In this document: positions 11,508 through 57,517 of the stretch, in pieces
Layout of the letters: each line of letters starts with the position of its first letter
How positions within the stretch are numbered: the first letter of the stretch is position 1
Assembly: GCA_030583725.1 (NCBI GenBank)
Contig: CP129472.1
Span: 64,286 to 128,285 of the forward strand
DNA from: a bacterium
GTDB taxonomy: Bacteria > Patescibacteriota > Microgenomatia > UBA8517
DNA length: 64,000 bases
Reading direction: 5' to 3'
The notes under the pieces: generated by a model
What the model was told of the DNA's origin: nothing
What the model saw: the letters and a program-made list of their open reading frames with translations, nothing else
Database searches by the model: none
Translations under genes and position numbers: made by a program

Positions 11508-11584
11508 TAATAAAAAATATTCTAACTACTTGATAGGATAGTAACACTAATTAGTAGTAAAATATAGGTTATTAATCTCTCTGT

Positions 11585-17584: not shown

Positions 17585-17647
17585 CCAACCCCGACCTGTC
17601 GGGGTCGAGCGAAGCGAAGACCACGACATTTGCCCATCCCCTCGGAC
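17582..17647. repeat. ~65-bp inverted repeat IR65a (left arm, upstream of recombinase 1); partner at 19179..19244
   Basis: 'cacccaaccccgacctgtcggggtcgagcgaagcgaagaccacgacatttgcccatcccctcggac' is the reverse complement of 19179..19244; contains the palindrome CCCCGACCTGTCGGGG. Confidence 0.8.
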
Positions 17648-17693
17648 GAAAACAACACAAGACAAAACAAAAAAGTTGATATTATTTGATGCC

Positions 17694-17723
17694 TTGATAT
17701 GGATTATTTACGGGCGTATAAAT
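17694..17723 (+). promoter_or_regulatory. Sigma70-like promoter for recombinase 1: TTGATA - 17 nt - TATAAAT, start codon ~7 nt downstream (leaderless)
   Basis: TTGATA at 17694-17699, 17-nt spacer, TATAAAT at 17717-17723. The same 30-nt sequence 'ttgata(c/t)ggattatttacgggcgtataaat' is conserved upstream of all three recombinase genes. Confidence 0.65.
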
Positions 17724-17729
17724 GATATT

Positions 17730-29641: not shown

Positions 29642-31345
29642 CTAAAAAGTTATAGTCAAGTTTGATATACTACCAATAGTTCTTGGAAACAAAAAAAATG
29701 CCGAGATGCTGAAATTGGTAAGAACCTTGGCCAATTTCAACACACAATAAGCCGAGATGCTGAAATTGGTAGACAGGCACGTCTCAGAAGCGTGTGTCGA
29801 AAGACATGAGAGTTCAAGTCTCTCTCTCGGCACCATTTTGCGACTTGGCGGGTCGGCACGAAGTGCCGACCAAGCGTTTAGCCCATCCCCTTGGAGTTTT
29901 TTGTTCTGGAGTTGCAGGTTCGAGCCGAAGATTTTTGAGGCGAGGACCTTAATTTGTTCTTTATCGTTAGTTGATATTATTTGATCTACTTCACTAGCTT
30001 CATTTATCCATTTTTTCATGGGTTCGAGCCAATTGCCTTGTGATCTTTTAAGAGAAAGGATTTGTTCCTCGATTGTTTTCTTTTTGGAAACTAATTCCAA
30101 TTTTTTATTTTGAAAAGTTTCTATATCAATTACTTGATCAAGATATGAGTCAAGAAGAAGTTTTAATTTTAAATTAATAGTTTCTAAATCCTTTCTCTTG
30201 TCATTTATGACCTCAAGGCAAGACTTGGCTATATCTGATTCTTCTTGTTTTAGTTTAGATAACATCTGATTAGCCCAAGTCTTTTTCAAAGAGTATTTTT
30301 TGATGAGTGTGGTGAGTTGTGGTTCAAGATAAATATCTCTTAGATACTTTTGACTACACTTTATATATTTATTCTTTTTAGTACAGTGATAGTAGGTATA
30401 TCTAACATTTCTATTAGTACCTTTATAATATTTATCTTGAACTTCGGCTGATATCATCATGCCACACTCACCACACCTAATAAGTCCTAAATATGGTTTT
30501 ATAATTCTATTAACTTTGGCTTCTTTCCACTGCCGATTTCTCCTATTTAGGACTTCCTGTACTTCATCAAAAAGTTTCTTTGAAATAATTGGCTCGTGTC
30601 TGCCCTCATACACATCTCCACCGTATGTAAAAACACCGTAGTAAAATGTCTTTTTAAGTAGATATCTTATTTTATCCTCATCAATTCTATTACCTTGTGG
30701 ATTTAAGACCTTTTGTGTTTCCAAAAAGCTAGAAATATCTTTCATTGATTTATCTCCCTTTGAGTACATTTCAAAAGCTTGGGTAATAACAGGCGCAATT
30801 CTTTTATTAACAATAATAGTTTTATTTCGAGTATCATTAATATACCCAAGCGGTGCTTTGCAAGGAAAATTACCATTTCTAGCTTTTTGCCTTAACCCAC
30901 GACGAGTATTTTCTGACAAAGAATCTACATAATATTTGGATTGAGAGAACGAAATTGACAACATGAACTTACCTTGAGAAGTGGGTTCAAACCAAAAGGT
31001 GTTAAATTTGAGGGCAGACAATTTACCTGTGTCCAAGAGGTAAATAATTTTTCCTCCATCAACGGAGTTTCTTGCCAAACGATCCGGATGCCATGAAATT
31101 ATCCCAGAAGCACGACCTTTTTCAATATTTTCTATCATTTTATTAAAAACTGGTCGTCCAGGAATTTTGGCAGATTGTTTCTCTATTAATTCTTCGACTA
31201 TTTCCAGACCTTCTCGTTTGGCAAGCAAACGAAGTTCGTCGAGTTGACCATCAATTGATTGAACTTGCATATCCTCAACATCTGTAGATTTTCTTGCGTA
31301 GAGGAAAAATTTTCTAGAATTAGGATTATTTACATTAGTAGCCAT
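29642..31345 (-). CDS. Large serine recombinase 2
   Basis: Paralog of recombinases 1 and 3, sharing the catalytic Ser motif 'FFLYARKSTDVEDMQ' and zinc ribbon 'IRCGECGMMIS'. Likely start MATNVNNP at 31345. The ORF has no stop before reading antisense through IR65b and tRNA-Leu, so the true 3' end is uncertain. Confidence 0.85.
   Translation of the reverse strand: MATNVNNPNSRKFFLYARKSTDVEDMQVQSIDGQLDELRLLAKREGLEIVEELIEKQSAKIPGRPVFNKMIENIEKGRASGIISWHPDRLARNSVDGGKIIYLLDTGKLSALKFNTFWFEPTSQGKFMLSISFSQSKYYVDSLSENTRRGLRQKARNGNFPCKAPLGYINDTRNKTIIVNKRIAPVITQAFEMYSKGDKSMKDISSFLETQKVLNPQGNRIDEDKIRYLLKKTFYYGVFTYGGDVYEGRHEPIISKKLFDEVQEVLNRRNRQWKEAKVNRIIKPYLGLIRCGECGMMISAEVQDKYYKGTNRNVRYTYYHCTKKNKYIKCSQKYLRDIYLEPQLTTLIKKYSLKKTWANQMLSKLKQEESDIAKSCLEVINDKRKDLETINLKLKLLLDSYLDQVIDIETFQNKKLELVSKKKTIEEQILSLKRSQGNWLEPMKKWINEASEVDQIISTNDKEQIKVLASKIFGSNLQLQNKKLQGDGLNAWSALRADPPSRKMVPRERLELSCLSTHASETCLSTNFSISAYCVLKLAKVLTNFSISAFFLFPRTIGSISNLTITF
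29700..29720 (+). repeat. 21-nt duplicate of the tRNA-Leu(CAG) 5' end, 30 nt upstream of the full gene, followed by 'ttggccaatttc'
   Basis: 'gccgagatgctgaaattggta' occurs at 29700 and again at 29751 (start of the tRNA). Confidence 0.7.
29751..29832 (+). tRNA. tRNA-Leu (anticodon CAG)
   Basis: Manual fold: GCCGAGA acceptor, anticodon arm CACGU-CUCAGAA-GCGUG, long variable arm, T-arm GAGAG-UUCAAGU-CUCUC, discriminator A. Confidence 0.8.
29830..29896. repeat. IR65b (abuts the tRNA-Leu 3' end); partner 31435..31503
   Basis: 'gcaccattttgcgacttggcgggtcggcacgaagtgccgaccaagcgtttagcccatcccc' is the reverse complement of the partner; contains the perfect hairpin GGTCGGCAC-GAAG-TGCCGACC. Confidence 0.8.
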
Positions 31346-31354
31346 GCTACTATC

Positions 31355-31384
31355 ATTTATACGCCCGTAAATAATCCGTATCAA
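31355..31384 (-). promoter_or_regulatory. Conserved sigma70-like leaderless promoter of recombinase 2
   Basis: Reverse complement reads ttgata-cggattatttacgggcg-tataaat; ATG 10 nt downstream. Confidence 0.65.
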
Positions 31385-31434
31385 GATATCAAATAATATC
31401 AACTTGTTGTTATGCTTTTTGTGTGGAGTTTTCA

Positions 31435-31503
31435 GTCCGAGGGGATGGGCTAAACGCTTGGTCGGCACTTCGTGCCGACCCGCCAAGTCGCAAAATGGTG
31501 CAT
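31435..31503. repeat. IR65b' (upstream of the recombinase 2 promoter)
   Basis: Reverse complement of 29830..29896. Confidence 0.8.
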
Positions 31504-31698
31504 ATCTATAGTTTAGTCAGAACCTATTTTACCACACATTTTTAATTCTGTAGCGGAGCAACAAGGGAGGGGTTAAAGGGGAAGGAATTGTTGCGGAGCG
31601 TGTTTCCTTGCTCGCCGCTTCGCGGCTCGCAAACCCATATCATGTTTGCGCTCCAGGCCTCCACTCGCTTCGCTCGTTTCGGCCTTCCGCTTACCCAC
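31499..31698. repeat. ~200-bp inverted-repeat arm B (far end). Partner 39274..39480; followed by a ~90-nt inner segment (31699..31790) shared with arm C.
   Basis: Reverse complement of the arm 3' of ncRNA copy B. Hairpins GCAACAA...UUGUUGC and GCCGC-UUC-GCGGC (covaries with GCCAC-UUCG-UGGC in arm A and GCUCCGC-UUCG-GCGGAGC in arm C). Confidence 0.85.
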
Positions 31699-31786
31699 TG
31701 TGTTTTGTTGTTATGCCTAGCCCACGCTTACTGATAACATAGAATACTCATTTGAACTTATGAATACTTATTTTATACAATTGAAG

Positions 31787-34778: not shown

Positions 34779-36002
34779 ATGCAACACGATATACAAAACG
34801 AAGAACGAGAAGCTGAAAATAGAGCACTCAAAGTAAACGAGGAGACATCAAAACTAACTAAAGTTTTAATGTGGGGTGCTCCTGGTTCTGAAACAGTTCT
34901 TGGACAATTACTCCCTAGTAAAATAAGTTGTTTTGAAACCCAGTTTGATGTGCTTGGAGCAAGAACAGAGTTTGAAACAGCCAAATCAATACTTACTTCC
35001 CAAGGAGTAGAAGTTATTCAAGTTAAAGACTTGATGGCTAAAATGATAGACGAGCAAGGATTGAAGCCTGAGGGGAACTTTGAAGGATTACGAAAAAATA
35101 TTGAGACGCGAGCATTAGGATATTCCGAAAAATATAAAGGTCAGGGAATTTCTGATGTTGAAGAAGTACTAAGCTGGTTAGATGAAGTATTAGAAGCTGA
35201 TGCAAAAAAATACGGGGTTGAAACCGCTACTTTAATGAATGAGGTTTTGTCATTAAAAAGTGAATTACCACTCTCAAATGTTTTGTATGCTAGAGATCAA
35301 TCAAATTTATTAGGTAGGACTTTTGTATGGTCATCTATGAGACATCAGATTAGACAACCAGAAGTGCATCTTTTCAAAACAGTCCTTAATCATAGTGGAA
35401 TTTTAGAATCAAAAGGTCTACAACAAGTACAAATTAACGGTAATGGAAGATTTGAGGGTGGAGATGGAATTGCAAACGCAGGGATTTTTTATGTTGGTGT
35501 CGGAGGTAGATCAAACACAGAAGGTGTGCTGCAGGCTTCTGAATCAATTATCTCGAAGGGTGGAAGAGTAATGATATCAATTGACAGTGATCGTGATTCA
35601 GGAGCTAATGAGATGGATGCAATGCATCTTGATACATTCTGGATGCCTGTTGGCATTAATCAAATTGTGGCCTGCAGAGATGAAATTAACAGAAGACAAA
35701 TTTTAGAAGTTGTAGGTAATCCTCTTTCGGGATTAAGACTTGAAGATCGGGGTAGTTTTATTGATCATCTTAATGAAAGAAATGTAGAACTTATTCCACT
35801 CACAAAAGAAGAACAGTTAGCCTACGCACCAAATTTCTTGAATCTAGGAAACAAAACAGTAGTCTTATCACTAGCTGATGGTAACAACTTAACAGGTGAA
35901 CTTGAGAAACGTGGTTTTACTGTGTTTAATGCAAATCTCAAAAATATTACTAAGGGTTATGGTGGGTTACATTGCATGACCGCCGCTATTAAAAGGGAGT
36001 AA
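34779..36002 (+). CDS. Amidinotransferase-superfamily enzyme, arginine deiminase-like
   Basis: 407 aa; C-terminal nucleophile region 'GYGGLHCMTAAI' as in ADI 'GGGxRCMS'. Confidence 0.55.
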   Translation: MQHDIQNEEREAENRALKVNEETSKLTKVLMWGAPGSETVLGQLLPSKISCFETQFDVLGARTEFETAKSILTSQGVEVIQVKDLMAKMIDEQGLKPEGNFEGLRKNIETRALGYSEKYKGQGISDVEEVLSWLDEVLEADAKKYGVETATLMNEVLSLKSELPLSNVLYARDQSNLLGRTFVWSSMRHQIRQPEVHLFKTVLNHSGILESKGLQQVQINGNGRFEGGDGIANAGIFYVGVGGRSNTEGVLQASESIISKGGRVMISIDSDRDSGANEMDAMHLDTFWMPVGINQIVACRDEINRRQILEVVGNPLSGLRLEDRGSFIDHLNERNVELIPLTKEEQLAYAPNFLNLGNKTVVLSLADGNNLTGELEKRGFTVFNANLKNITKGYGGLHCMTAAIKRE

Positions 36003-36003
36003 A

Positions 36004-37941
36004 ATGAAAAGAGAACGAAATGAACCCATGAACGATAACCCTTTGTATGCAATTTACAAAAAAGAGAGTCAATTAATAAAAGCTGTTGAGTCTCAATTAG
36101 TAAGCAAAAATCAAACTCCAAATATTATTGAAGCTCCACTTTCTACAGGTTTTGATTATGGCATTAATCTTACAAGTCTGGCTAGTGAAGAAGGATTATC
36201 TCCACAAGATCTAGCTTTAAAAATAGCGAGTAAAATAGATGGTGCTGAAGCTGTTGGGTCATTTTTGAATTTTAAATTAGAAATGTCTGAATTTGGTCAT
36301 GCAGTAGTAGATCAAATTTTGGATATGAAAGCTGACTATGGTAAGGAAAATGAAGGAAATGGACAAAGAGTAGTTATAGATATGTCTTCTCCCAACATAG
36401 CAAAAAGAATGAGCTATGGTCACTTAAGGTCTACAATTATTGGCGATGCTTTAGCAAATCTACACAGATCTGCAGGATATGAAGTTATTCGAGATAATCA
36501 TATAGGTGACTGGGGAACACAGTTTGGAAAATTAATTGTTGCGATTAAAAACTGGGGTGACGAGCAAGAATTATTAAATTCGGATGATCCCATTGGTATA
36601 CTTCAAGATTTATATGTTAAATTTCATTCAGAAGAAGAAATTGAAAAAGGTGTTTTGAGAGAGGAAGCAAAGAAAAAAATTGAAGTGGATGGTGTTGAAT
36701 CAGTAACTGGACTTGAAGAAACAATCGAGATCATAAGTCAGGAAATAATGACTAGAAAGAAAATATCTAGGTCAGAATTGGATACGACAAAAATAACTGA
36801 AGATGCATTAGATAGAGTAATTGTTTCAGGTTTAGAAAAAGAAGGACGGAATTGGTTTTTAAAACTTGAAAAAGGCAATAAAGAAGCTCGAAGACTTTGG
36901 AAACTTTGCATTGATCTTTCGTTAAAAGAATTTAATCAGATTTATGAAGTATTAGGAGTTAATTTTGAAGAGTCGTTTGGCGAGAGTTTCTACGAAAGTA
37001 TGTTAGGTGGTGTTATAGACAAAGTAGCTTCAAGTAAAGCTGGTCACGTTAGTAATGGAGCATTAGTAATTGATATGCAGGATAAAGGATTGGGTGTTGC
37101 AATTGTACAAAAATCTGACGGGGCAAGTGTTTATATGACAAGAGATTTGGCTTGTGCAATTTATCGAGAGGAAGAGATGAAAGCGGACAAGGCGATTTAT
37201 GTAGTTGGTGATGATCAAAAACAATATTTTGAACAACTTTTCGAAAGCTTAAGTAGACTAGGTTATAAAATTGGTGAGAATTCAGTACATGTTTATTTTG
37301 GAATGGTGAGTTTACCAGAAGGTAAAATGTCAACAAGAAAAGGAAGAGTAATTCTATTAAAAGATGTTTTAAGTGAGGGATTTAGAAAAGCAAATGAGGT
37401 TATTGAAGCAAAAAGTCCAAAGTTGAATAAGAATGAATCACTTAAGGATGAAATTGTTAGACAAATTGCTGTTGGGGCTTTGAAATGGAATGATTTATGT
37501 CAAGATCCAAGAAAGTCAGTTATCTTTAATTGGGACAAGGCCTTAAATTTCGATGGAAACTCAGCACCTTATGTTCAATATACTGCAGTTAGAGCAAATA
37601 GTATTATTGAAGCTTCACGAATAGATATAGCGCAGCTATCAAAAAATAATGCTAATTCAGAAAATGATTATCAAGAAATATCTGAAAAAGCATTAATTAG
37701 ACAATTAGCTAGTTTCCCAAAAGCAATTAAAGATGCTCTAGATAATAACTCTCCAGCTAAAGTTGCAACGTATGTATTTGAATTATCAAAAAGATTTAAT
37801 ACTTTTTATGGTAAAAATAGAGTTTTGGGTATTGAGGATGAAAATATAGTCTCATCTCGTTTGAAACTAGTCGCTGCAACATACCAAACAATCAAAAATT
37901 CACTTGCGATTTTAGGAATAGAGGTTCCTTCAAGAATGTAA
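36004..37941 (+). CDS. argS: Arginine--tRNA ligase
   Basis: 'SSPNIAKRMSYGHLRSTIIGDALANLHRSAGYEVIRDNHIGDWGTQFGKL' ArgRS signature; DALR anticodon-binding C-terminus; 645 aa. Confidence 0.9.
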   Translation: MKRERNEPMNDNPLYAIYKKESQLIKAVESQLVSKNQTPNIIEAPLSTGFDYGINLTSLASEEGLSPQDLALKIASKIDGAEAVGSFLNFKLEMSEFGHAVVDQILDMKADYGKENEGNGQRVVIDMSSPNIAKRMSYGHLRSTIIGDALANLHRSAGYEVIRDNHIGDWGTQFGKLIVAIKNWGDEQELLNSDDPIGILQDLYVKFHSEEEIEKGVLREEAKKKIEVDGVESVTGLEETIEIISQEIMTRKKISRSELDTTKITEDALDRVIVSGLEKEGRNWFLKLEKGNKEARRLWKLCIDLSLKEFNQIYEVLGVNFEESFGESFYESMLGGVIDKVASSKAGHVSNGALVIDMQDKGLGVAIVQKSDGASVYMTRDLACAIYREEEMKADKAIYVVGDDQKQYFEQLFESLSRLGYKIGENSVHVYFGMVSLPEGKMSTRKGRVILLKDVLSEGFRKANEVIEAKSPKLNKNESLKDEIVRQIAVGALKWNDLCQDPRKSVIFNWDKALNFDGNSAPYVQYTAVRANSIIEASRIDIAQLSKNNANSENDYQEISEKALIRQLASFPKAIKDALDNNSPAKVATYVFELSKRFNTFYGKNRVLGIEDENIVSSRLKLVAATYQTIKNSLAILGIEVPSRM

Positions 37942-38896: not shown

Positions 38897-39480
38897 CTCC
38901 TTTCTCCTGCCCATGCACATGGCGTAAGCCATCACCCCTGTAAGCTTTGGCGTGTTTTGTGTTGGGCAGAATTCCCGACAGGGAATATTTCAGGAGCAAT
39001 GCCTGTTGTGCCCGTAGCTTCCTAACCAAGTGCTGTGCGTAAGCACCTGTTCTGTTTTCAGCACTTGGATAGTTGCCTGTTAAGGTAAATTGCGACTGAA
39101 ATGTCATATTTTGTCCCAACGGCTAGCCGTTAACCGTCCAGCGGACGGTAACATGGACAAAAGGCCGTATTTACGGCCAGTTAACGGAGTCGATTGATCT
39201 TCTTACGGTATACCGTTAACTACCGTCAGGAGCCGTTAGGCCTCCTGACTATAAATAACCCCTTTTCCTTAAAGTGGGTAAGCGGAAGGCCGAAACGAGC
39301 GAAGCGAGTGGAGGCCTGGAGCGCAAACATGATATGGGTTTGCGAGCCGCGAAGCGGCGAGCAAGGAAACACGCTCCGCAACAATTCCTTCCCCTTTAAC
39401 CCCTCCCTTGTTGCTCCGCTACAGAATTAAAAATGTGTGGTAAAATAGGTTCTGACTAAACTATAGATATGCACCTTGAC
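38897..39480 (+). ncRNA. Structured RNA-like element, copy B (hairpin-rich module 38897..~39273 + inverted-repeat arm 39274..39480)
   Basis: Same hairpin order as copy A with compensatory changes: AUGGC-GUAA-GCCAU; AUUCCC-GACA-GGGAAU; GUGC-GUAA-GCAC; UUGCC-UGUUAAG-GUAA (G-U wobble, valid only on the + strand); ACGG-UAUA-CCGU; GUCAGGAG-loop-CUCCUGAC; then the conserved junction 'uauaaauaaccccuuuuccuuaaag'. Confidence 0.5.
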
Positions 39481-39516: not shown

Positions 39517-39598
39517 GCGGGAGTGGCGAAATTGGTAGACGCGCTTGCCTAAGGAGCATGTGGAGAAATCCTTGCTGGTTCGAGTCCAGTCTCCCGCA
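39517..39598 (+). tRNA. tRNA-Leu (class II); anticodon reads AAG in the canonical fold (U-U mismatch in the anticodon stem), so the anticodon assignment is uncertain
   Basis: GCGGGAG acceptor, 3-bp D-stem/11-nt loop identical in pattern to the other Leu genes, long variable arm, T-arm GCUGG-UUCGAGU-CCAGU, discriminator A. Confidence 0.65.
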
Positions 39599-39614
39599 CA
39601 ATGTACTTTAATAT

Positions 39615-39797: not shown

Positions 39798-39870
39798 GCC
39801 GAGATAGCCTAGTTGGTCATGGCGCATCTCTGAAGAAGATGAAATGTTGGTTCGATTCCAACTCTCGGCA
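39798..39870 (+). tRNA. tRNA-Phe (anticodon GAA)
   Basis: GCCGAGA acceptor, anticodon arm CAUCU-CUGAAGA-AGAUG, T-arm GUUGG-UUCGAUU-CCAAC. Confidence 0.85.
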
Positions 39871-41496
39871 CAAATTGTAAATGCGGGTATGTGAAATTAA
39901 AATTTCATCACCCGCTCGAAGCTCGCGGGTATAGCATAGTGGTAATGCGCCTCGTTGCCAACGAGGATAGAGGAGTCCGATTCTCCTTACCCGCTCCCAC
40001 CCCCGACCTGTCGGGTCGGCACGAAGTGCGGACCAGACATTTATCCCCTGTCCTCGGACAATTCTGTTTTTTAGAAAGAGGTCCGAGCCGAAGATTTTAG
40101 CGGCGAGAACCTTTTTAAGTTGCAAGTCCGCAGACTTGGCAACTTGTGTAGCTGTTCTTGCTTCATTTATCCAACTCCTCATGGGTCCGAGCCAACTGTC
40201 ATTGGTTTGTTGGAAGTTAAAGATTTGCTCCTCCAATTTCTTCTTTTGGGAGAGAAGTTCTGACTTTTTAGAAAGATAACTTTCTTTGTCAACTTCTTGG
40301 TCAAGGTAACTATCCAAAAGAATTGTCAATTTGGAGGAAATCTTTCTAACTTCCTCTTGTTTTTCAAAAACAAACCTATGACCAGATTGGGCAAGATTGA
40401 TTTTTTCTTTGTCTAATTTCTTTAACATTTTACTTGCCCAATCGTTTCGCAAAGAATACTTTTTGATGAGTGTGGAGAGTTGAAAGTCTAAATTTTCCTC
40501 TCTAATAAATGGTTGGCGACAGTTATGGAATTTAGACTTTCTAGTACATCTATAGTATTTGAAAATATCTACTTTACCGTTTTTATAATATTTATTTTTA
40601 ATTTCTCCTGTAATTGCCATTCCACACTCTCCACACTTTAGAAGTCCTAAAAATGGTTTAGTAATTCTTGCCTTGGTCCACTGTTTACTTCTACCATTTA
40701 GGACTTCTTGTACTTCATCAAAAAGTTTCTTTGTGATTATTGGCGTATGGACCCCTTCGTGGATCTCTCCTAAATACCGAAAATGGCCGTAGTAGAATGG
40801 GTTTTTTAAAACAAGATTCATCTTGTCTATCCGAGCGCATCTAGCTTTAGGTAAATTTACGCCATTTTCTGACAAAAAGTCAGCAATTTGGTAAAGCCTA
40901 TACTTACCTGTTGCAAACATTTCAAAGGCTTTAACAATAAGTGGTGAAATCTTTTTATTAACTTTGATTGACTTATCCCTAGAATCATTAATGTAACCTA
41001 GTGGTGCAACACCTGGCATTTCACCACGTCTGACTTTTTGGCGTAGTCCTCTTTTGGTATTTTCAGAGAGAGCATCCACGAAGTACTTGCTTTGGCCAAA
41101 GGCCATTGCAAGCATGAATTTTCCTTGTGGAGTTGGTTCAAACCAAAATTGAGGACATTTTAAATACTTTAACTTTCCTATATCAATCAAGTAAATAATT
41201 TTTCCACCATCCATGGAGTTTCTAGCAAGTCTATCAGGATGCCAACAAATTATGCCAGAAGCACGGTCTTTTTCTATTGCTTCCATCATTTTATTAAATA
41301 TTGGTCTTCCTTGAATTTTGGCAGACTGCTTTTCAACAAATTCTTCAACAACAAACAAATTCTCACGTTTTGCAAAGTCTCTTAACTCAGCAAGTTGTGC
41401 TTCGATCGAAAGAATTTGTTTGTCTTCTACATCTGTAGACTTGCGTGCATACAAGAAAAATTTTTGAAGGCTAGGATTATTTACAATATTGCTCAT
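39817..41496 (-). CDS. Large serine recombinase 3
   Basis: 'FFLYARKSTDVEDKQILSIEAQ', 'WHPDRLARN', zinc ribbon 'LKCGECGMAITG...YRCTRKSKFHNC'; start MSNIVNNP at 41496. The C-terminus 'WSALRADPTGRGW' is encoded in IR65c; the frame continues antisense through tRNA-Gly/Phe without a stop until 39817. Confidence 0.85.
   Translation of the reverse strand: MSNIVNNPSLQKFFLYARKSTDVEDKQILSIEAQLAELRDFAKRENLFVVEEFVEKQSAKIQGRPIFNKMMEAIEKDRASGIICWHPDRLARNSMDGGKIIYLIDIGKLKYLKCPQFWFEPTPQGKFMLAMAFGQSKYFVDALSENTKRGLRQKVRRGEMPGVAPLGYINDSRDKSIKVNKKISPLIVKAFEMFATGKYRLYQIADFLSENGVNLPKARCARIDKMNLVLKNPFYYGHFRYLGEIHEGVHTPIITKKLFDEVQEVLNGRSKQWTKARITKPFLGLLKCGECGMAITGEIKNKYYKNGKVDIFKYYRCTRKSKFHNCRQPFIREENLDFQLSTLIKKYSLRNDWASKMLKKLDKEKINLAQSGHRFVFEKQEEVRKISSKLTILLDSYLDQEVDKESYLSKKSELLSQKKKLEEQIFNFQQTNDSWLGPMRSWINEARTATQVAKSADLQLKKVLAAKIFGSDLFLKNRIVRGQGINVWSALRADPTGRGWERVRRIGLLYPRWQRGALPLCYTRELRAGDEILISHTRIYNLCRELESNQHFIFFRDAP
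39925..39995 (+). tRNA. tRNA-Gly (anticodon GCC)
   Basis: GCGGGUA acceptor, anticodon arm CCUCG-UUGCCAA-CGAGG, T-arm AGGAG-UCCGAUU-CUCCU. The 3' end is contiguous with IR65c. Confidence 0.85.
39993..40059. repeat. IR65c (abuts the tRNA-Gly 3' end); partner 41580..41646
   Basis: 'gctcccacccccgacctgtcgggtcggcacgaagtgcggaccagacatttatcccctgtcctcggac' is the reverse complement of the partner. Confidence 0.8.
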
Positions 41497-41504
41497 GCAA
41501 TATT

Positions 41505-41534
41505 ATTTATACGCCCGTAAATAATCCGTATCAA
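41505..41534 (-). promoter_or_regulatory. Conserved sigma70-like leaderless promoter of recombinase 3
   Basis: Reverse complement ttgata-cggattatttacgggcg-tataaat, ATG 9 nt downstream. Confidence 0.65.
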
Positions 41535-41579
41535 TAGATCTTTTTATATCAATTTTGGTTTGAGGTTGTGTTCTGTTTT

Positions 41580-41646
41580 GTCCGAGGACAGGGGATAAAT
41601 GTCTGGTCCGCACTTCGTGCCGACCCGACAGGTCGGGGGTGGGAGC
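41580..41646. repeat. IR65c' (upstream of the recombinase 3 promoter)
   Basis: Reverse complement of 39993..40059. Confidence 0.8.
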
Positions 41647-41866
41647 GACTTTTCCAAACCGCTCTGACTTGGTTTCGCCAACATGTATAGTTTAACATCT
41701 TTGTTTGCATTCTCCAAGAAGAGGGGTTAAAGGGGAAATGAATTGGAGAATGCTCGTGTTGCTCGCTCAGCTCCGCTTCGCGGAGCTTCGCTAACCCAAT
41801 CGTGTGTGCGCTCCAGGCCTCCACTCGCTTCGCTCGTTTCGGCCTTCCGCTTACCCACTGTGTTTT
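41646..41866. repeat. ~220-bp inverted-repeat arm C (far end). Partner 57166..57386; followed by an inner segment 41867..41970 homologous to 31699..31790.
   Basis: Reverse complement of the arm 3' of ncRNA copy C. Hairpin CUCCAA...UUGGAG replaces GCAACAA...UUGUUGC of arms A/B around the conserved loop 'gaggggttaaaggggaa'. Confidence 0.85.
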
Positions 41867-41967: not shown

Positions 41968-42486
41968 CTAACTGTTCTTCCAGATTCCTAGTTTTTTGCT
42001 CTTTGCTTGTTCCTGTGCTTCTAAAAGTTGAACTTGATAAATAAATGGCTTCCTTTTTTGATATATAACTAATTCAGCCATACCTTTTCGGACAAGTTCA
42101 ATGGAGATGTTCTTTTCATCAATGATTGGGTATGCAAGAATTCTTCCAAATTTGTCAGAAGTATAGTTATCATATTCAAGTTTTATTTCTTTACCTTCAA
42201 CAAGTTCTTTGTTTAATTTAGAAGCTTCTTCTGCAAAGTCTTCACTCTCTTCTGGAGCTGTTATGCCAACATATCTAAGTACAGTACCGTTAAATAACTC
42301 TACAGTGTCTCCATCTATCACTCTTTTAACAACTGCAGTTTTGGGGAGTTTTGTAACATCATGATTTTCTATAGCTTCTCTAGAATCTAAAACTTTTCTT
42401 ACATCATCTTCATATTCTGTACCTTTGGATAGTTCTTTTAAGTTTTTAAGAAGTTCTACTGGGACTAAAACAAATTTGTTATTCAT
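41968..42486 (-). CDS. Staphylococcal-nuclease (SNase/thermonuclease)-like protein
   Basis: 'VKRVIDGDTVEL...LRYVGITAPE...GRILAYP' matches the SNase active-site region. Confidence 0.65.
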   Translation of the reverse strand: MNNKFVLVPVELLKNLKELSKGTEYEDDVRKVLDSREAIENHDVTKLPKTAVVKRVIDGDTVELFNGTVLRYVGITAPEESEDFAEEASKLNKELVEGKEIKLEYDNYTSDKFGRILAYPIIDEKNISIELVRKGMAELVIYQKRKPFIYQVQLLEAQEQAKSKKLGIWKNS

Positions 42487-42495
42487 ATAATTTTA

Positions 42496-42888
42496 CTAAC
42501 TAAAGATAGTTTTAATTGTATCCTCCAAAGAAATAGCAAATTGATCTAACTTTGAGTATTCTTTTAAAATCGACTGCGTAATTCCATGTTTAATTAGCGC
42601 TTGATTGTAATCAGGAACAGACGAGATACCAACTATTTTATTTGGTACAAATTTTTTAAAATCAAGAACATGGAAAGACCCTCCAAGTTTACAGTCACGA
42701 TCTAGAAGTATTAAGTCAAAACTGACGTCTAAATCCTTATTAATATATTTTTCAACCTGAATATACTCAGACAAAACAATTACAGATAAATCAAGCTTCA
42801 TTGCTGTTTCAATTTTATATAATGCGTCAAATATTTTAGAGAGTGTTAGGATATCATCCTCAAGTATTAATATTCTTTTAGTTTTCAT
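42496..42888 (-). CDS. Stand-alone receiver (REC/CheY-like) domain protein
   Basis: 'RILILEDD' acidic pocket, 'LILLDRD' phospho-acceptor-like Asp; 130 aa. Confidence 0.5.
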   Translation of the reverse strand: MKTKRILILEDDILTLSKIFDALYKIETAMKLDLSVIVLSEYIQVEKYINKDLDVSFDLILLDRDCKLGGSFHVLDFKKFVPNKIVGISSVPDYNQALIKHGITQSILKEYSKLDQFAISLEDTIKTIFS

Positions 42889-42890
42889 TA

Positions 42891-43154
42891 TTAAATTAGT
42901 ACTAAAGTTATTATTAAAGACAATATGGCAGAAACAAAAAAGGATGTTTTTCTTGCACTTTTCTCAACATTTATGAATTCCTCATTATTCTTGTAGTTTT
43001 TTGGATTATGGAACCTGCGGTTCATTTTTAATCCTCTATAGCTGTGGCTTGGTTCAAAACTAATTTTTCCTTTGTACTTGATATAAGTCCAATATATCCA
43101 AGAAAAATTAAAGATAAAACAAACTATGTATATAAGGATAAATGACATACACAA
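42891..43154 (-). CDS. Small membrane protein
   Basis: Two hydrophobic segments; ORF only. Confidence 0.3.
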   Translation of the reverse strand: MCMSFILIYIVCFIFNFSWIYWTYIKYKGKISFEPSHSYRGLKMNRRFHNPKNYKNNEEFINVEKSARKTSFFVSAILSLIITLVLI

Positions 43155-43277
43155 ATTATAAAACTATATTTACAAAAAATACATAAACATAAACTTTTTA
43201 AAATTTCACAACTCAAAATATTTTGTCGAATTAGAAAATTTTGTTGTTAATTGTGCTTTACGCTTAAATTTATTTAA

Positions 43278-43712
43278 CTAATACACCTTTTCAGTAAAAA
43301 GTGACTTGAGTGTAAAAAATATAGTTTTTGTTATTCTAAATATAAATTCAATAAACATAATTGTTGCTATAAACATAATTTTTAAAACGCTAGGAAAATA
43401 TAGAATAATACTTATTAAACCACATGCAATAATTATTGATCTCTCATCAAACTCAAAAACGAGAAGCCCAGTAAAAAATAAACCTATTACAATAACTGCG
43501 TGTATCACTTTTCTAAATAGATAATCAGATAGTGGGTAATTAACTAAATTATAAAATCGTGAAGTTTTCTTAATTTCAAACTTTTTGAAATATCCACTAA
43601 ACAGACTAATTGGAACCATAAAAAACCTAAATAGTTCAAAAATTATGTTTCTAGCAAAATTTGGTGTTGTATCTAATTCAAACTCAACCTTTTTCATAAT
43701 AACCATATTCAA
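43278..43712 (-). CDS. Membrane protein (about 4 TM), hypothetical
   Basis: Hydrophobic segments; directly upstream of the helicase gene. Confidence 0.4.
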   Translation of the reverse strand: MNMVIMKKVEFELDTTPNFARNIIFELFRFFMVPISLFSGYFKKFEIKKTSRFYNLVNYPLSDYLFRKVIHAVIVIGLFFTGLLVFEFDERSIIIACGLISIILYFPSVLKIMFIATIMFIEFIFRITKTIFFTLKSLFTEKVY

Positions 43713-43721
43713 TATGTAACA

Positions 43722-46700
43722 TTATTTATCAATATATTTTTCAGTAATTTTACATTTTGGATAAAATTTACAACCCCACAAATATCCACCGAATCTACTT
43801 TTTCTTTTAATCATTGGCTGTGGTTCGTGATTTGGGTTAGGACAAATCGGTTCACCTGCAGGCGTATATTTTTTAACCATCTTTCTTAAACTAGTAAGTT
43901 TTTCTTTCTGCTCCTTGGTCTCTATATCTGTTTTTGGTATGACTCCCGGTTTATGCATACGCAATAAACAATATGTCCAATAACTACCGAAGCGACTTTT
44001 GTCTGTCCAATAATATGCTCCAGTTTCTTTGCAAAATTCGCACAATCTTAGATTATTTGTGCCTATTTTTCCAATATTCTTATCTAATTTCAAGAATTTA
44101 AACATTTGATTACATGTGGATTCACCCTCAAACCTTCTCATTACTTCATGGCTATCCTTTTGAGATAATATATTTAAGCTTCCTTCCCACAGTATATTTC
44201 TATCTATTATTGCTAATTTTCTATGAATAAAACCAACAAAAGGTAAGACCACAACTCCCAATTTGCTAAGCTCTTTGATACCGGATTCTGCTTGTTGTTT
44301 CATAAGTGAACTGTGTTCCTTCGTCATTCTTGTTAGTAAAAATATATTTACACCTTTACTTATAAGATGCCTAAAAATTGGCAAGAAAAAATTAACTCGA
44401 TTCATAGTTATATATGGACTATCGATTACAACTTCATTCTTTGCTTTAAGCAGATCGTTAACAAAAACATTATAAAAATCAGTTTCGTCAAACAACTTTG
44501 ATTGAGAATCGCCCTTTTCTAGTTCTTTTGTCTGAACTATTTTGGAAAGCCACTTTTCGGTCTTATCTGTAACAACATATTTTGGCAAAATTTCTTTTGC
44601 ATTAACGAATGGATAATTATTTAAACGCGAATATTCTACAAACATTCTTAACTTTGACGACAAACTATGTTTCACTAATAAACTTTTTGAATCTACTATT
44701 ACAATACATTTTTCTTGGGTTCGCGAAAAAGCGACATTTATAAGCTTTTCGTCATCACCACCATCCTGACTATCGTCTGTAAGTTTCGTTTGATTAGCTG
44801 TCGTTACATCAAAAATAATTATTTGCTTTTCTCCACCTTGAAACTTGTGTACAGTATCTACCACAACTTTATCATCTGTATTTTCGTCTTTCAGAATTTT
44901 TTGAATTAAATTTACCTGAGCTCTAAATGGTGAAATTATTCCGATGGTTTTGTAACCGCTCTTGATTGCTTGCTTTGCTATATCTACTGCCAATAATGCG
45001 TTATAAAGATTGTAATATGACCCAGAATCAGTTTTTACAGCAATTGTTCCCACTTCGCTCGTGTCAAAAACACCAATATGAAAATCGGGTAATGGTGGCT
45101 TTGACAGTAACACACTACCTTTATCAGAAGTCGCTTTAATGTCAGATATTAATTCATAGTCTTTACCGATTTTTGAATAGACAAGATGGTTAACTAAATT
45201 TGAGATGTCTGGGTGCATTCTGTATTGCCTTCTAAGTTGCTGTAAGCAGTTAACCAATGTTTTATTTCTAAGATTGTCTTCAACTCCCGATGCCTTAAAA
45301 ACATCTCGTTTTAGCCATTTATCCACGAGGTCTTGCTCTGCCTGCTTTTGTTCATCAGATAGATTCCTGTTATCGAGAACTTTATGTTTTGCAATTGGCG
45401 GAAGTTGAAGAAAATCACCAACAATAACTGTTTTAGTTTTTGATAAACCACAAGCGTGCCACACGGCAGGTAATGGAGCCATTGAAGCCTCATCAATAAT
45501 AACGCAGTCGTATTCACGACTCAATATTTCACTTGAACTATAACTTTTTGTTAACGTCGTCGCAATTATTTTTGCATTTTTGACTACCAACGAAATGAGG
45601 TTGTTCAACTGATTTTCTAATTCACTTTTTTGTGAATCTAAATCTTTTATTATCTTTCTATTGGCAAGGACTTTGGCTTCATTTTCTTCTCTAGAGTTAT
45701 CCCTTAAATCATTTCTAAGCTTTTCTGCCTCCTCCGTAAATATTCGCAACCTACCTTCAATTGTTTCAATTTGATAAATAGTTGCTTCATTTTTCTGTTT
45801 TAGATTTTCAATATTTTCAAGTAACTTTGTTTTTTCAGAGATTAATTGGGATAGATTTGTTCCAGAAAAGAACCTCATAATACTGTTTGAATTTTGATAA
45901 TTTGCGATTCTTTGGTTAATATCAGCTAATTTATGTTTATGTCCCGTCACTAATTCTTTTGAAGATATTAATTTGTTTTTGTTAGAGACTAACTCTCTAC
46001 TTATTTTTTCTATATCCTTATCACAATTATCAAGATTATCAAATAATTCAACAATTTTTTCTGAGTATTCACATTCTTTATTGATTTTATCAATTTTGGC
46101 GTTAAGATCTCCAATCTCTTTTCTGATCGGACTACCCTTAATTTCTAGTGCCTTACCGGGATCAACGTAATCAATTGATTTTAAATCCTTTTCTGTTTCG
46201 TAGAGCTTACTATCAGCATTTACCTTCCCAATACGTATGATGTTTCCAGATTCAAGATCACTTAACTGCTTCGTTTGCAACAGATACTGAACTGTTTTGT
46301 TCAAAGCCTCATCAGTTGCCTTATTTGTATGTGACAAAAGCAAAGTACTGTAGTTTAGAGACAACATGCCTTCGAGCATTTTAGCAATTAAATGTGTTTT
46401 GCCAGTTCCTGGAGGTCCCCAGATATAGGAAACTTCACTTCCCATTACGAGTCTTAATGCCCTCTCTTGAAATTCGTTCAAGGATTCCCCAACTGAGGGG
46501 ATAATATAGTCATTATCAATCATTGACTTTGAAGTATCAGGATTAAACGTTTTATTGGCTAAATCTGTTATTTTGATTTCACCATTTTTAATTTTTTGGA
46601 GTTTGTTATACAAAAGCTGCAACAAATAATAACTTGATATTATCATCATTGCTTCAGAAATTGTTGACCCAATATTTTTCTCTAATTGGACCTCAATTAT

Positions 46701-46946
46701 ATTTTCATTTATGCCAATAACTTTACCAGATACAGACTCATTTTTGATACGAATTTCAATTTCAGAATCAGAGTCAATATCTTGTAAAAAATCCATAACA
46801 AATTCGTAGATATGTAACTCTCCTACGACAGATGTTAACTGGCCGTTTGTTAGTCGAATACTGGAGCCACCTTCTTTTTGAAGATATTTAATATTAGCAT
46901 CAAGGGCTAACATCATCTCATCTATAATGTTTTGATTATCAGTCAT
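43722..46946 (-). CDS. Upf1/Dna2-like SF1 helicase fused to a PLD-family nuclease domain and a C-terminal topoisomerase-type C4 zinc finger (1074 aa)
   Basis: Walker A 'GPPGTGKTH'; motif II 'VIIDEASM'; 'VGDFLQLPP'; 'SPFRAQ'; 'VHKFQGGEKQIIIFD'; PLD HKD motif 'HRKLAIIDRNILWEGSLNILS'; zinc ribbon 'CPNPNHEPQPMIKRKSRFGGYLWGCKFYPKC'. Long coiled-coil insert between the helicase halves. Confidence 0.75.
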   Translation of the reverse strand: MTDNQNIIDEMMLALDANIKYLQKEGGSSIRLTNGQLTSVVGELHIYEFVMDFLQDIDSDSEIEIRIKNESVSGKVIGINENIIEVQLEKNIGSTISEAMMIISSYYLLQLLYNKLQKIKNGEIKITDLANKTFNPDTSKSMIDNDYIIPSVGESLNEFQERALRLVMGSEVSYIWGPPGTGKTHLIAKMLEGMLSLNYSTLLLSHTNKATDEALNKTVQYLLQTKQLSDLESGNIIRIGKVNADSKLYETEKDLKSIDYVDPGKALEIKGSPIRKEIGDLNAKIDKINKECEYSEKIVELFDNLDNCDKDIEKISRELVSNKNKLISSKELVTGHKHKLADINQRIANYQNSNSIMRFFSGTNLSQLISEKTKLLENIENLKQKNEATIYQIETIEGRLRIFTEEAEKLRNDLRDNSREENEAKVLANRKIIKDLDSQKSELENQLNNLISLVVKNAKIIATTLTKSYSSSEILSREYDCVIIDEASMAPLPAVWHACGLSKTKTVIVGDFLQLPPIAKHKVLDNRNLSDEQKQAEQDLVDKWLKRDVFKASGVEDNLRNKTLVNCLQQLRRQYRMHPDISNLVNHLVYSKIGKDYELISDIKATSDKGSVLLSKPPLPDFHIGVFDTSEVGTIAVKTDSGSYYNLYNALLAVDIAKQAIKSGYKTIGIISPFRAQVNLIQKILKDENTDDKVVVDTVHKFQGGEKQIIIFDVTTANQTKLTDDSQDGGDDEKLINVAFSRTQEKCIVIVDSKSLLVKHSLSSKLRMFVEYSRLNNYPFVNAKEILPKYVVTDKTEKWLSKIVQTKELEKGDSQSKLFDETDFYNVFVNDLLKAKNEVVIDSPYITMNRVNFFLPIFRHLISKGVNIFLLTRMTKEHSSLMKQQAESGIKELSKLGVVVLPFVGFIHRKLAIIDRNILWEGSLNILSQKDSHEVMRRFEGESTCNQMFKFLKLDKNIGKIGTNNLRLCEFCKETGAYYWTDKSRFGSYWTYCLLRMHKPGVIPKTDIETKEQKEKLTSLRKMVKKYTPAGEPICPNPNHEPQPMIKRKSRFGGYLWGCKFYPKCKITEKYIDK

Positions 46947-47228: not shown

Positions 47229-47314
47229 GAGCTCGTGGCGAAACTGGTACACGCGATAGTTCAGAGAACTATTTCCTCTCAGGATTACGAGTTCAAATCT
47301 CGTCGAGCTCACCA
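47229..47314 (+). tRNA. Class II tRNA (Leu-like, discriminator A, CCA encoded) with an atypical anticodon arm: the canonical fold gives C33 and anticodon AGA, an alternative register gives CAG
   Basis: GAGCUCG/CGAGCUC acceptor with extra 5' G, 3-bp D-stem GCG/CGC, long variable arm, T-arm ACGAG-UUCAAAU-CUCGU, 3' ACCA. Confidence 0.5.
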
Positions 47315-55853: not shown

Positions 55854-56696
55854 TCATTTATCAAACTTTTTAAATTCAGTTTCACGATCCTCAATTATTT
55901 CATTTACATTACCCCAATTATTTTGAGCTGGTGTTAATTTAAGCAAAACTAATAATCTTAATAAAATTGTTAATCCTAACATTAAGGTAAGCCACAAAAT
56001 AACAGTTGATACTAAAATTTTTACAATAGTAGCTAGGTATTTAAATATAAAGACTTTTTTAGTCAACTCTGGATTGTAAAGTGATATAAATATCAAAGTA
56101 ATTAAAATTACTAATGCTACAATTGAAATTATCAAGATATCCTTAATATTAGCAGATGAGACAACCCCAATTAATTCATAGGCAGATAAACATTCTGATT
56201 TTCCTTGCTTTGATATAACTTTTGATAAATCTCTTTTATTTACAGGACCAAACGATCTTGAATCATTTGAATTTAACCGATTGTCCCCTAGAACAAAATA
56301 TTCATCATTATCTAAAACTACTGATTGGTTATCATTTTCGTGTGCACTTATGTCTAAAAATCCATTTTCGCTAACTATTTTGTCATTAATATAAATTTTT
56401 GAATTAACTATCGTTACCTTTTCATTTGGTAGTCCAATTATTCTTTTAACAAAATCAGCGTTCTCAACACTTGAATCATATTTACTACCATCAAAAGTGA
56501 CAACATCGCAACGATTATAAGACACTAGTCTTCTAACTGAAGAGTAACTATCACGATTACTAAAGTAAGGATTCATTGAATTTCCCATAACATCACCATT
56601 ATCAAAGCCCGATATAAAATATAAACCTATCAATAGTACGATGCCTATCCCACCATGTTTAAGAATATCTAGAAAAATCTTTTCGATTTTCTTCAT
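55854..56696 (-). CDS. lepB: Signal peptidase I (S26) with an extended C-terminal membrane region
   Basis: 'GNSMNPYF' (catalytic Ser), 'GDNRLNSNDSRSFG' (box E). Confidence 0.7.
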   Translation of the reverse strand: MKKIEKIFLDILKHGGIGIVLLIGLYFISGFDNGDVMGNSMNPYFSNRDSYSSVRRLVSYNRCDVVTFDGSKYDSSVENADFVKRIIGLPNEKVTIVNSKIYINDKIVSENGFLDISAHENDNQSVVLDNDEYFVLGDNRLNSNDSRSFGPVNKRDLSKVISKQGKSECLSAYELIGVVSSANIKDILIISIVALVILITLIFISLYNPELTKKVFIFKYLATIVKILVSTVILWLTLMLGLTILLRLLVLLKLTPAQNNWGNVNEIIEDRETEFKKFDK

Positions 56697-56744: not shown

Positions 56745-57386
56745 TCTCCTGCCCATGCACATTGGCCAAAGGCCAACCACCCCTGTAAGCTTTGGGGTGT
56801 TTTGTGTTGGGCAGGATTCCCGACAGGGAATATTTCAGGAGCAATGGTTTTGTTGTTTTTGTGTTCTAACCAAGTGCTGTGCCGAAGGCACTTTTGGAGT
56901 TGTTTTCTAGCACTTGGGTAGTTGCCTGTTAAGGCAAATTGCGACTGAAATGACACATTAGAAATCCTTTAAAAATAGGTCTTGTTTAGTTTTTGTGTTC
57001 ATATGTGAACTTGCGGTGACCGCATCCGCAACCGCAGTACCGCAACTCCGCAATATGCCCTATAATACGACACGATTGCGGATTTTATAAAGGTCTCTGC
57101 GGTATACCGCAAGGGCACCGTCAGACACTCGCAAGTGTCTGACTCTACAAATAACCCCTTTTCCTTAAAGTGGGTAAGCGGAAGGCCGAAACGAGCGAAG
57201 CGAGTGGAGGCCTGGAGCGCACACACGATTGGGTTAGCGAAGCTCCGCGAAGCGGAGCTGAGCGAGCAACACGAGCATTCTCCAATTCATTTCCCCTTTA
57301 ACCCCTCTTCTTGGAGAATGCAAACAAAGATGTTAAACTATACATGTTGGCGAAACCAAGTCAGAGCGGTTTGGAAAAGTCGCTCC
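56745..57386 (+). ncRNA. Structured RNA-like element, copy C (hairpin-rich module 56745..~57165 + inverted-repeat arm 57166..57386)
   Basis: Closing helices CUCCUG/CAGGAG and CCUGCCCA/UGGGCAGG (perfect 8 bp); UUGGCC-AAA-GGCCAA; AUUCCC-GACA-GGGAAU; CCAAGUGCU..AGCACUUGG enclosing GUGCC-GAA-GGCAC; UUGCC-UGUUAAG-GCAA; UGCGG-UAUA-CCGCA; GUCAGACAC-UCGCAA-GUGUCUGAC; then the junction 'cuacaaauaaccccuuuuccuuaaag'. Confidence 0.5.
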
Positions 57387-57517
57387 ATAGCGAAATGGTT
57401 TTGCGTTTTTCCCAATTTTCCTCAAGAAATCAGCATTTTCCCGAGTTCTAGCCACTATTTTTAACGGTTTATCTTTAGCCTGGAAAAAAGTTTACCGGTT
57501 ACCGGAGTCGGACCAAA

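Follow-up and report, generated by a model that had tools for sequence, protein, structure and literature searches.

The 64,000-nucleotide (nt) stretch of contig CP129472.1 analysed here (the window; all positions are counted from its first letter) comes from a bacterium of the Microgenomatia (Patescibacteriota) and contains, at positions 41968-46946, a block of five open reading frames (ORFs) on the minus strand, the longest of which encodes a 1074-amino-acid (aa) protein that joins a helicase to a nuclease. A preliminary description, made from the letters alone, had taken the block for a defence module at the edge of a mobile element. Each of the five ORFs was found at exactly the positions claimed for it, and the block and its leader read as follows:

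43722-46946, minus strand: helicase-nuclease gene, ORF of 1074 aa (122 kDa), a Mokosh type II-like unit
43278-43712, minus strand: membrane protein gene, ORF of 144 aa with 2-3 hydrophobic segments (hydropathy)
42891-43154, minus strand: small-protein gene, ORF of 87 aa with two hydrophobic segments (hydropathy)
42496-42888, minus strand: stand-alone divergent receiver (REC) gene, ORF of 130 aa
41968-42486, minus strand: SNase-family nuclease gene, ORF of 172 aa
46947-46993, minus strand: upstream leader of 47 nt, common with a strain whose helicase is 97% identical (locus L074; blastn), with TATAAT on the gene strand

The gaps between the five co-directional genes are 15, ~130, 2 and 9 nt, and the public protein records of the block are WKZ25806-WKZ25810, with QY322_00655 as the locus tag of the receiver. 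The G+C content is about 32% in the window and slightly lower, 27-30%, across 42-44 kb of the block. Counts of promoters and terminators in the block were no better than those in shuffled sequence.

The 1074-aa protein is an Upf1/Senataxin-type SF1B helicase, with all motifs intact, fused to a single-HKD PLD domain. Its parts are encoded as follows:

46638-46946, minus strand: N-terminal helix and beta-barrel domain, aa 1-103 (AlphaFold: helix 2-25, strands 28-103)
46398-46418, minus strand: Walker A helicase motif GPPGTGK, aa 177-183
45576-46160, minus strand: three-helix coiled-coil insertion in RecA1, aa 263-457 (~195 residues; AlphaFold)
44667-45575, minus strand: second half of RecA1 and RecA2, aa 458-760, with motifs II-VI (invariant motifs; AAA_12)
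44127-44498, minus strand: single-HKD Nuc-like PLD nuclease domain, aa 817-940 (PLDc_2; invariant motif)
43752-44042, minus strand: two zinc ribbons joined by a helix (ligand conservation; Zn_ribbon_Top1)

The motor is matched by Pfam AAA_11 (1e-32) and AAA_12 (1.3e-29), and its motifs GPPGTGK, DEASM, GDxxQLPP, QYRM, TVHxFQG and NVAxSR vary little or not at all across alignments of 17 and of 65 homologues. The AlphaFold model (mean predicted local distance difference test score, pLDDT, 85) arranges the chain as an N-terminal helix/beta-barrel, a RecA1 domain split by the coiled coil, RecA2, the PLD domain and two helix-separated ribbons. Its best solved matches in Foldseek were SETX (Senataxin), IGHMBP2, UPF1, DNA2, Aquarius and ZNFX1, with E-values of 1e-29 to 1e-24 for the first four, and a sequence search of the PDB returned DNA2 at the top (1.1e-16) and also UPF1. 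Profiles, motifs and structural matches thus bear out the SF1 helicase of Upf1/Dna2 type that had been read from the sequence. The long coiled-coil insertion described with it appears in the model as three helices (residues 263-352, 365-414 and 419-457); the region occurs in all homologues aligned and is poorly conserved in sequence. In the N-terminal domain, G26, G35, Y47, F49 and G93 are kept across the family (65-homologue alignment).

The C-terminal nuclease motif HxK(x4)D of the preliminary description was likewise upheld: PLDc_2 matches at 4.6e-9 (36.7 bits against a cut-off of 27), and the signature H908-R-K910-LAII-D915, together with GSLN at 922-925, is invariant or nearly so in both alignments. 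The PLD domain is ~50% identical to stand-alone PLD proteins of 146 aa. The topoisomerase-type C4 zinc ribbon was recovered in part, in that a zinc module is present, but it is neither single nor of the C4 kind. There are two ribbons, the first (aa 969-998) with the CCCH ligands C969/C972/C993/H998 and the second, probably of Topo-I type (aa 1035-1065), with the CHCC ligands C1035/H1040/C1059/C1065, and each ligand is kept in 57-65 of the 65 sequences. The Pfam model Zn_ribbon_Top1 (PF01396) reaches 1.7e-4 and 21.8 bits in the protein itself, under its cut-off of 32, and is precomputed for most of the homologues.

A word-indexed search yielded 409 relatives, about 110 of which run to full length (1040-1090 aa), keep the order of domains seen here and are 40-52% identical. 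The close relatives that are named belong to Gracilibacteria, Saccharibacteria, Daviesbacteria and Harrisonbacteria, all of them candidate-phyla bacteria, and the NCBI label of the relatives is just 'AAA domain-containing protein'. The helicase-PLD family is sparse, with ~110 full-length clusters as compared with more than 1300 in the family of the neighbouring receiver. A scan of a genome collection saturated on the Walker A pattern, and the relatives it returned were all at most 28% identical.

The PADLOC profiles place this protein next to the Mokosh defence proteins. The best match was MkoA (3e-62; aa 76-757), followed by MkoC (1.7e-45), which aligns aa 471-937 with profile positions 663-1109 of 1136, and by MkoB (7.6e-5) on the PLD domain. 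BLASTP against YjhR, the remnant of MkoC in E. coli K-12, gave 2e-17; the aligned part (aa 655-948, 23% identical) takes in RecA2 and the PLD domain and ends at the latter, 12 residues short of the end of YjhR. Since YjhR stops just past the PLD domain, the C-terminal ribbons, on a tail of ~125 residues, are an addition of the helicase-PLD clade. In K-12 and in one sampled E. coli genome, yjhR is found as truncated pseudogenes only. YjhR has been cited as a case of MkoA fused to MkoB (10.1101/2022.12.12.520048), and Mokosh II has been characterized as a 132-kDa monomeric SF1-helicase/PLD protein that in one panel protected against a single-stranded DNA (ssDNA) phage only (bioRxiv 10.1101/2025.07.10.664194). 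The three profile matches and the homology to YjhR agree with the earlier view of a helicase-nuclease fusion of a defence-associated kind.

Judged from its sequence, the helicase-PLD gene is best described as a putative variant of Mokosh type II, with the same two-module logic, a remote identity, and ribbons and a coiled coil in addition. Both are stand-alone genes for one polypeptide (122 versus 132 kDa) in which an Upf1-like SF1 helicase is followed by a single-HKD PLD domain. They differ in that the 23% identity applies to the alignable part only, that the tail with two conserved zinc ribbons is extra in the 1074-aa protein, and that the relatives of the latter, where named, occur in candidate-phyla bacteria. 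Mokosh type I (MkoA plus MkoB) has the same two enzymatic modules, and MkoA is the best profile match; however, type I consists of two genes and its MkoA carries extra domains, whereas the modules are fused here and a separate MkoB gene is absent. The same combination of helicase and single-HKD PLD recurs in the eukaryotic MOV10L1/Upf1-like helicases and PLD6 (Zucchini) of the piRNA pathway, and has been proposed to be derived from Mokosh (10.1101/2022.12.12.520048). In the piRNA pathway, by contrast, the proteins are separate and act on RNA targets in germline granules, and there is no small-RNA machinery here. Nuc of pKM101 is a Nuc-type PLD endonuclease of a conjugative plasmid. Such enzymes share with our protein a single-HKD domain of ~150 residues, and ~50%-identical stand-alone relatives of this domain lie near VirB4-like genes, but here the PLD domain shares its chain with a motor and zinc ribbons. 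Dna2, finally, resembles it in the SF1B core, as the top sequence match in the PDB, and in having helicase and nuclease in one chain. In Dna2 the nuclease is of the PD-(D/E)XK type, lies at the N terminus and carries an iron-sulfur cluster, whereas here it is a C-terminal PLD domain.

The nearest solved structures and sequence matches (DNA2, UPF1, IGHMBP2 and SETX), together with the housekeeping operons that flank some homologues, would suit a housekeeping helicase-nuclease of reduced-genome bacteria, serving repair, fork processing or RNA surveillance in the manner of Dna2, Upf1 or IGHMBP2. We consider this very unlikely, as the family is sparse and without conserved synteny, the nuclease is a PLD domain, unlike that of Dna2, and the helicase gene sits in a strain-variable cassette. 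A consistent setting in replication or repair operons, which would have spoken for such a role, was not seen among the relatives, whose contexts are variable. A patchy presence of the gene among close relatives is suggested.

In our judgement the 1074-aa protein probably acts on its own, as the effector of a one-gene defence system of Mokosh type II that targets nucleic acids. Enzymes of the Upf1-like SF1B group travel along single strands in the 5' to 3' direction, in PLD nucleases (Nuc and Zucchini, for example) two HKD units together make up one active site, and the C-terminal ribbons of Topo I bind ssDNA. In an effector of this kind the motor would load onto single-stranded foreign nucleic acid, either the ssDNA of incoming or replicating elements or transcripts, and would translocate 5' to 3' at the expense of ATP, with the strand held by the N-terminal beta-barrel and the Topo-I-type ribbons. 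Since a lone HKD unit cannot form a PLD active site, two molecules would have to pair, plausibly via the coiled coil or on the substrate, and the pairing would license cleavage and destruction of the invader. Cutting only when two copies meet would also restrain a potentially toxic nuclease.

Several observations weigh against this interpretation. No NCBIfam model reaches its cut-off in the 1074-aa protein; MkoA rather than MkoC is the best-scoring profile, and the first ~660 positions of the MkoC profile are without a match. The PADLOC and DefenseFinder pipelines might make no system call for the gene. EcMokosh II is monomeric in solution (10.1101/2025.07.10.664194), and the dimerization step is a conjecture. 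The helicase gene is the only defence match in the 15.3-kb segment in which it lies, and several homologues are flanked by housekeeping genes. The frequent linkage of the family to serine recombinases and the PLD relatives near VirB4-like ATPases also fit a role in mobile elements, which is weighed below.

A more specific proposal is that the zinc-ribbon helicase-PLD clade constitutes a distinct single-protein effector of immunity or inter-element conflict, centred on the candidate phyla and carried as integrase-proximal cargo of tRNA-targeting large-serine-recombinase islands, in which the ribbons sense entering ssDNA and the coiled coil drives pairing of the PLD domains. Such an effector would detect ssDNA on its entry by conjugation, natural uptake or ssDNA phages, and the substrate would induce two half-site PLD domains to pair, driven by the coiled coil. 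We regard this proposal as decidedly doubtful.

The claim that the five genes form one defence module was examined in ~160 loci, comprising contigs of close homologues, 64 distant genomic loci and 80 metagenomic loci that were found via the PLD-and-ribbon region and are mostly stand-alone PLD genes. In most of the ~160 loci the relative is distant, the PLD gene stands alone or the contig is short, and a full-length relative with usable downstream sequence is present in only ~15-20 of them. One locus (L073) is the same genome as the window and another is L074, the strain with the 97%-identical helicase. A phmmer search with the four small proteins gave matches in these two loci and in none of the ~150 other loci with helicase or PLD relatives, nor did the module co-occur in 7 loci holding receiver relatives; one SNase gene that lies 9 kb from a stand-alone PLD gene in L090 was judged irrelevant. 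Each of 14 other family members has a different gene directly downstream, few of these genes encode membrane proteins, and among 129 neighbour proteins pooled from 14 loci no family recurs as a partner.

The comparison with L074, the nearest strain, settles the matter. The two strains are 95.9% identical in DNA over the stretch that begins 47 nt before the start codon of the helicase and includes the 144-aa gene, and the right edge of the shared cassette is the end of the 47-nt leader, where the homology stops (blastn). Where the window has the 87-aa and 130-aa genes, L074 encodes an FtsK-gamma protein of 101 aa that ends in a membrane helix; the SNase genes of the two strains are only 83% identical in DNA, and the outer flanks differ on both sides. 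The five-gene block is a mosaic and not a co-inherited unit. We also noted that the cassette of L074 (3952-4257, 4785-5014) ends, past an extra 65-aa ORF with two membrane helices, in G+C-rich GCGACCGAGCGAAGCGAGG, which resembles the long inverted repeat of the window and at which the contig breaks. The SNase side is thus repeat-adjacent in both strains, and the helicase side has different neighbours.

The co-direction and tight spacing of the five genes would suit one multi-component system, with the helicase-nuclease, an SNase effector, a receiver switch and membrane sensors working together. Such a system would also be in line with the fact that L074 keeps three of the five (helicase, 144-aa protein and SNase), with receiver relatives that occur elsewhere among restriction-modification, toxin-antitoxin and OLD genes, and with one element in which an SNase gene lies 2.8 kb from a receiver homologue. 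It is, in our view, the least probable of the explanations weighed here and is largely refuted by the co-occurrence test: outside the same genome and L074 the genes were not seen together in any of ~150 loci, of which ~15-20 have a full-length relative with usable downstream sequence, no two of the family members inspected agree in what lies downstream, L074 has swapped the two middle genes and has an SNase whose divergence is unlike that of the helicase (83% versus 96%), and none of the three small proteins is represented among the PADLOC models.

The helicase gene has no conserved partner, and the family lies in variable regions, some of them serine-recombinase islands integrated at tRNAs, others close to restriction and other defence genes. 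The defence neighbours in the pooled set, each seen once, are a GajB-like UvrD, a type II methylase with BamHI, a type IV Mrr, the Shedu protein SduA and a PARIS-like AriAB, and they stand beside ordinary housekeeping genes. In L157 the homologue lies in an island whose first gene encodes a large serine recombinase and overlaps a tRNA-Gln at the 3' end of the tRNA; DndB and a BamHI restriction-modification system are in the same island. One relative has a UvrD/GajB-like gene and an integrase at its locus, another an AAA_15/21-DUF4435 gene and a serine recombinase, and in L080 a related recombinase adjoins the helicase homologue. In L003-L005 the helicase gene and one unannotated downstream ORF are alone between the pyrimidine (pyr) and purine (pur) operons.

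The four small genes share a variable region with the helicase, to which they are unrelated, and are accessory genes in their own right: the SNase is a nuclease of mobile-element type, the membrane proteins are lineage-specific, and the receiver is a member of a large family of small regulators. The 130-aa protein had been described as a stand-alone REC domain, and this held, although Pfam (Response_reg included) and a single-sequence phmmer search of the PDB found nothing in it. Its family comprises ~100 clusters at 50% identity in an exhaustive search and more than 1300 proteins in a profile search, and its named members are from candidate-phyla bacteria except for one labelled Nanoarchaeota. 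E10, D63 and S89 are invariant and D11 and K109 nearly so in 49 sequences; as E10/D11, D63, S89 and K109 make up the catalytic set of receivers, the protein is a true but divergent stand-alone receiver. The family profile matches response regulators of the PDB at full length (best E-value 1.2e-4), and the AlphaFold model (pLDDT 97) has the features of a (beta/alpha)5-type receiver, with the receiver domains of ComE and Rcp1 as top Foldseek matches (template modelling, TM, scores of 0.66-0.72).

The neighbourhoods of receiver relatives contain restriction-modification, toxin-antitoxin, OLD-type and PD-(D/E)XK genes (loci L158-L164). In L159 a receiver relative directly follows an FtsK-gamma winged-helix protein that is homologous to the replacement gene of L074, an order that hints at a split pair of receiver and DNA-binding protein. 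In L161, L162 and L164, which belong to one element family and have these genes in near-identical places, the SNase lies 2.8 kb from the receiver homologue; the element of L161 holds a Toprim primase, a DUF5659 gene, the receiver homologue and the distant SNase. MTBMA_p00010_2nd primase-like and DUF5659 genes occur both in L161 and in L155, an island with a helicase homologue, and between these two loci a sequence match was obtained for the DUF5659 proteins only. This hints at a common family of integrative elements in candidate-phyla bacteria.

The SNase-like nuclease of the preliminary description is confirmed by Pfam SNase (7.8e-21, 75 bits) and by 36% identity to nuclease A of S. aureus. 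The 172-aa protein keeps the equivalents of D21, R35, E43 and R87, has Thr in place of the Ca ligand D40 and Ala in place of T41, and, judged from its sequence, has no signal peptide. Homologues labelled 'thermonuclease family' are found on 647 plasmids, mostly conjugative or mobilisable, and the parCBA operon of RP4 joins a site-specific recombinase with a nuclease (PMC7314908). Because of these plasmid SNases and the RP4 precedent, an association of the SNase with the recombinase beside it is no less likely than one with the helicase. The two small membrane proteins were also correctly foreseen, with 2-3 hydrophobic segments each in hydropathy plots. The 144-aa protein has no Pfam, NCBIfam or PADLOC match, and its homologues are absent from the ~160 loci except L073 and L074; for the 87-aa protein no relatives were detected beyond the same genome or close strain, and it is absent from L074 itself.

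The surroundings of the block contain the following features:

41642-41859: left arm of a 218-nt perfect inverted repeat with its partner at 57169-57386, bounding a 15.3-kb segment (C)
39817-41496, minus strand: large serine recombinase (Pfam Resolvase, Recombinase, Zn_ribbon_recom)
11582-11784 and 17385-17587: long inverted-repeat pair of 203 nt, enclosing 5.6 kb
31497-31699 and 39273-39475: long inverted-repeat pair of 203 nt, enclosing 7.6 kb (segment B)
47229-47314, plus strand: class II tRNA with anticodon AGA (ARAGORN Ser-AGA; Rfam tRNA 47.6 bits)
56778-57168, 38933-39272 and 11785-12086 (reverse strand): non-coding region common to three segment ends

The block starts the 15.3-kb segment beside the 218-nt repeat arm, which ends 108 nt from the stop of the SNase gene. 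The 3' end of the recombinase at 39817-41496 runs into a tRNA-Gly, with 70-nt perfect inverted repeats at 39992-40061 and 41578-41647, one of which overlaps the 3' end of this tRNA. We observed in addition that the ORF of this recombinase reads through a tRNA-Phe and the tRNA-Gly on the opposite strand, and that the accessions WKZ25804 (arginyl-tRNA synthetase) and WKZ25806 (SNase) leave room for one protein between them. From this gap of one, the recombinase is apparently without a public protein record.

Three paralogous large serine recombinases with ~55% identity are present in the window as repeat-flanked units (17582-19244, 29830-31501 and 39992-41647), each inside perfect inverted repeats of 66-70 nt, the outer ends of which overlap a tRNA at its 3' end. 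The layouts of the first two span 17.6-19.4 kb and 29.6-31.5 kb. The core GCTCC(C)A of element C occurs at the end of the tRNA-Gly, inverted at 41641-41647 and direct at 57380-57387. Read as attachment sites, these would correspond to B-O-P', an inverted P-O-P' and P-O-B', a geometry in which both the recombinase gene and the large segment could invert. We know of no described element with this triple recombinase/inverted-repeat layout, and the inverted repeats of the window were not found in L080, L127, L155, L157 or any other fetched locus, whereas the geometry of tRNA and recombinase matches the classical island in L157. Segment B holds an arginyl-tRNA synthetase (36004-37941) and an arginine deiminase (34779-36002), and segment C a signal peptidase I (55854-56696) and genes for sugar (glycosyl) and methyl-transferases. 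Because segments B and C hold such housekeeping-type genes, the repeat-bounded segments may be invertible chromosomal stretches rather than mobile cargo. The idea of the 15.3-kb segment as a dense defence island was discarded in view of its single defence match. The architecture of recombinases and inverted repeats, together with the structured non-coding region at the far segment ends, is stranger than the helicase gene itself.

Stand-alone relatives of the PLD domain are found on ~70 metagenomic contigs (L084-L154) as single-HKD proteins of 146-170 aa, ~50% identical to the PLD domain of the helicase; none of these contigs has an adjacent helicase. They lie near an M23 peptidase in 12 loci and near a VirB4-like ATPase in 7, and look like Nuc-type nucleases of conjugation-like clusters. 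Their likeness to the fused domain suggests a recent shuffling of domains.

These stand-alone nucleases, and the recombinases, bring in another explanation, according to which the helicase-PLD protein would serve the mobile element that carries it, by processing or protecting DNA during excision, replication or transfer or by attacking competitors, with the SNase as part of the same toolkit. Related large serine recombinases lie 0-6 kb from family members in L080, L155, L157 and the window, and in L127 a recombinase is 66 nt from a stand-alone PLD gene; moreover, the VirB4-like ATPases and M23 peptidases near the stand-alone PLD genes, the plasmid-borne SNase homologues, the recombinase-nuclease pair of RP4 parCBA (PMC7314908) and the abutment of the SNase end of the block on the recombinase-side repeat in both strains would all accord with it. 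Family members in L003-L005 and L006, however, have no mobile-element gene within 8 kb, close relatives of the helicase gene were not found on the viral contigs of IMG/VR, tblastn against plasmids gave weak partial matches only, and the nearest annotated profiles are those of defence proteins. We rate such a service to the element as possible, if unlikely, and prefer the single-gene defence effector.

Upstream of the block, with the helicase gene on one side and the remainder of the segment on the other, the class II tRNA at 47229-47314 had been noted as atypical. It is real by ARAGORN and by its Rfam score, which also rules out a spurious call, and it was missed by the default filters of Rfam. 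At position 33 it has C in place of U, and its discriminator base, A73, is like that of a Leu and not a Ser tRNA. The window also has, at 39517-39599, a tRNA-Leu whose anticodon (AAG) begins with A34.

The recombinase-distal ends of the three segments share a non-coding region of 300-500 nt with 72% column identity. It contains an invariant 12-bp stem (CCAAGTGCT/AGCACTTGG) and several hairpins, and 11 pairs show compensatory changes among the three copies. An Rfam scan of the region gave no credible match. The region may encode an RNA specific to the element, or serve as an origin of transfer or replication.

A tight co-directional string of genes in a small genome, as the present block illustrates, needs a co-occurrence test before it is called a module. 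Mokosh is widespread and is tied by homology to the piRNA machinery of animals. With ~110 full-length members that all have one architecture, the helicase-PLD clade forms a compact, well-conserved set, and its two ssDNA-type ribbons and long coiled coil could aid the dissection of substrate recognition and nuclease licensing; if the clade were indeed a distinct effector, it would offer a mechanistic handle on the trigger and the target of Mokosh. To our knowledge, few defence systems besides restriction-modification and CRISPR have been documented in bacteria with ultra-small genomes, and this clade would widen the recognised defence repertoire to them.

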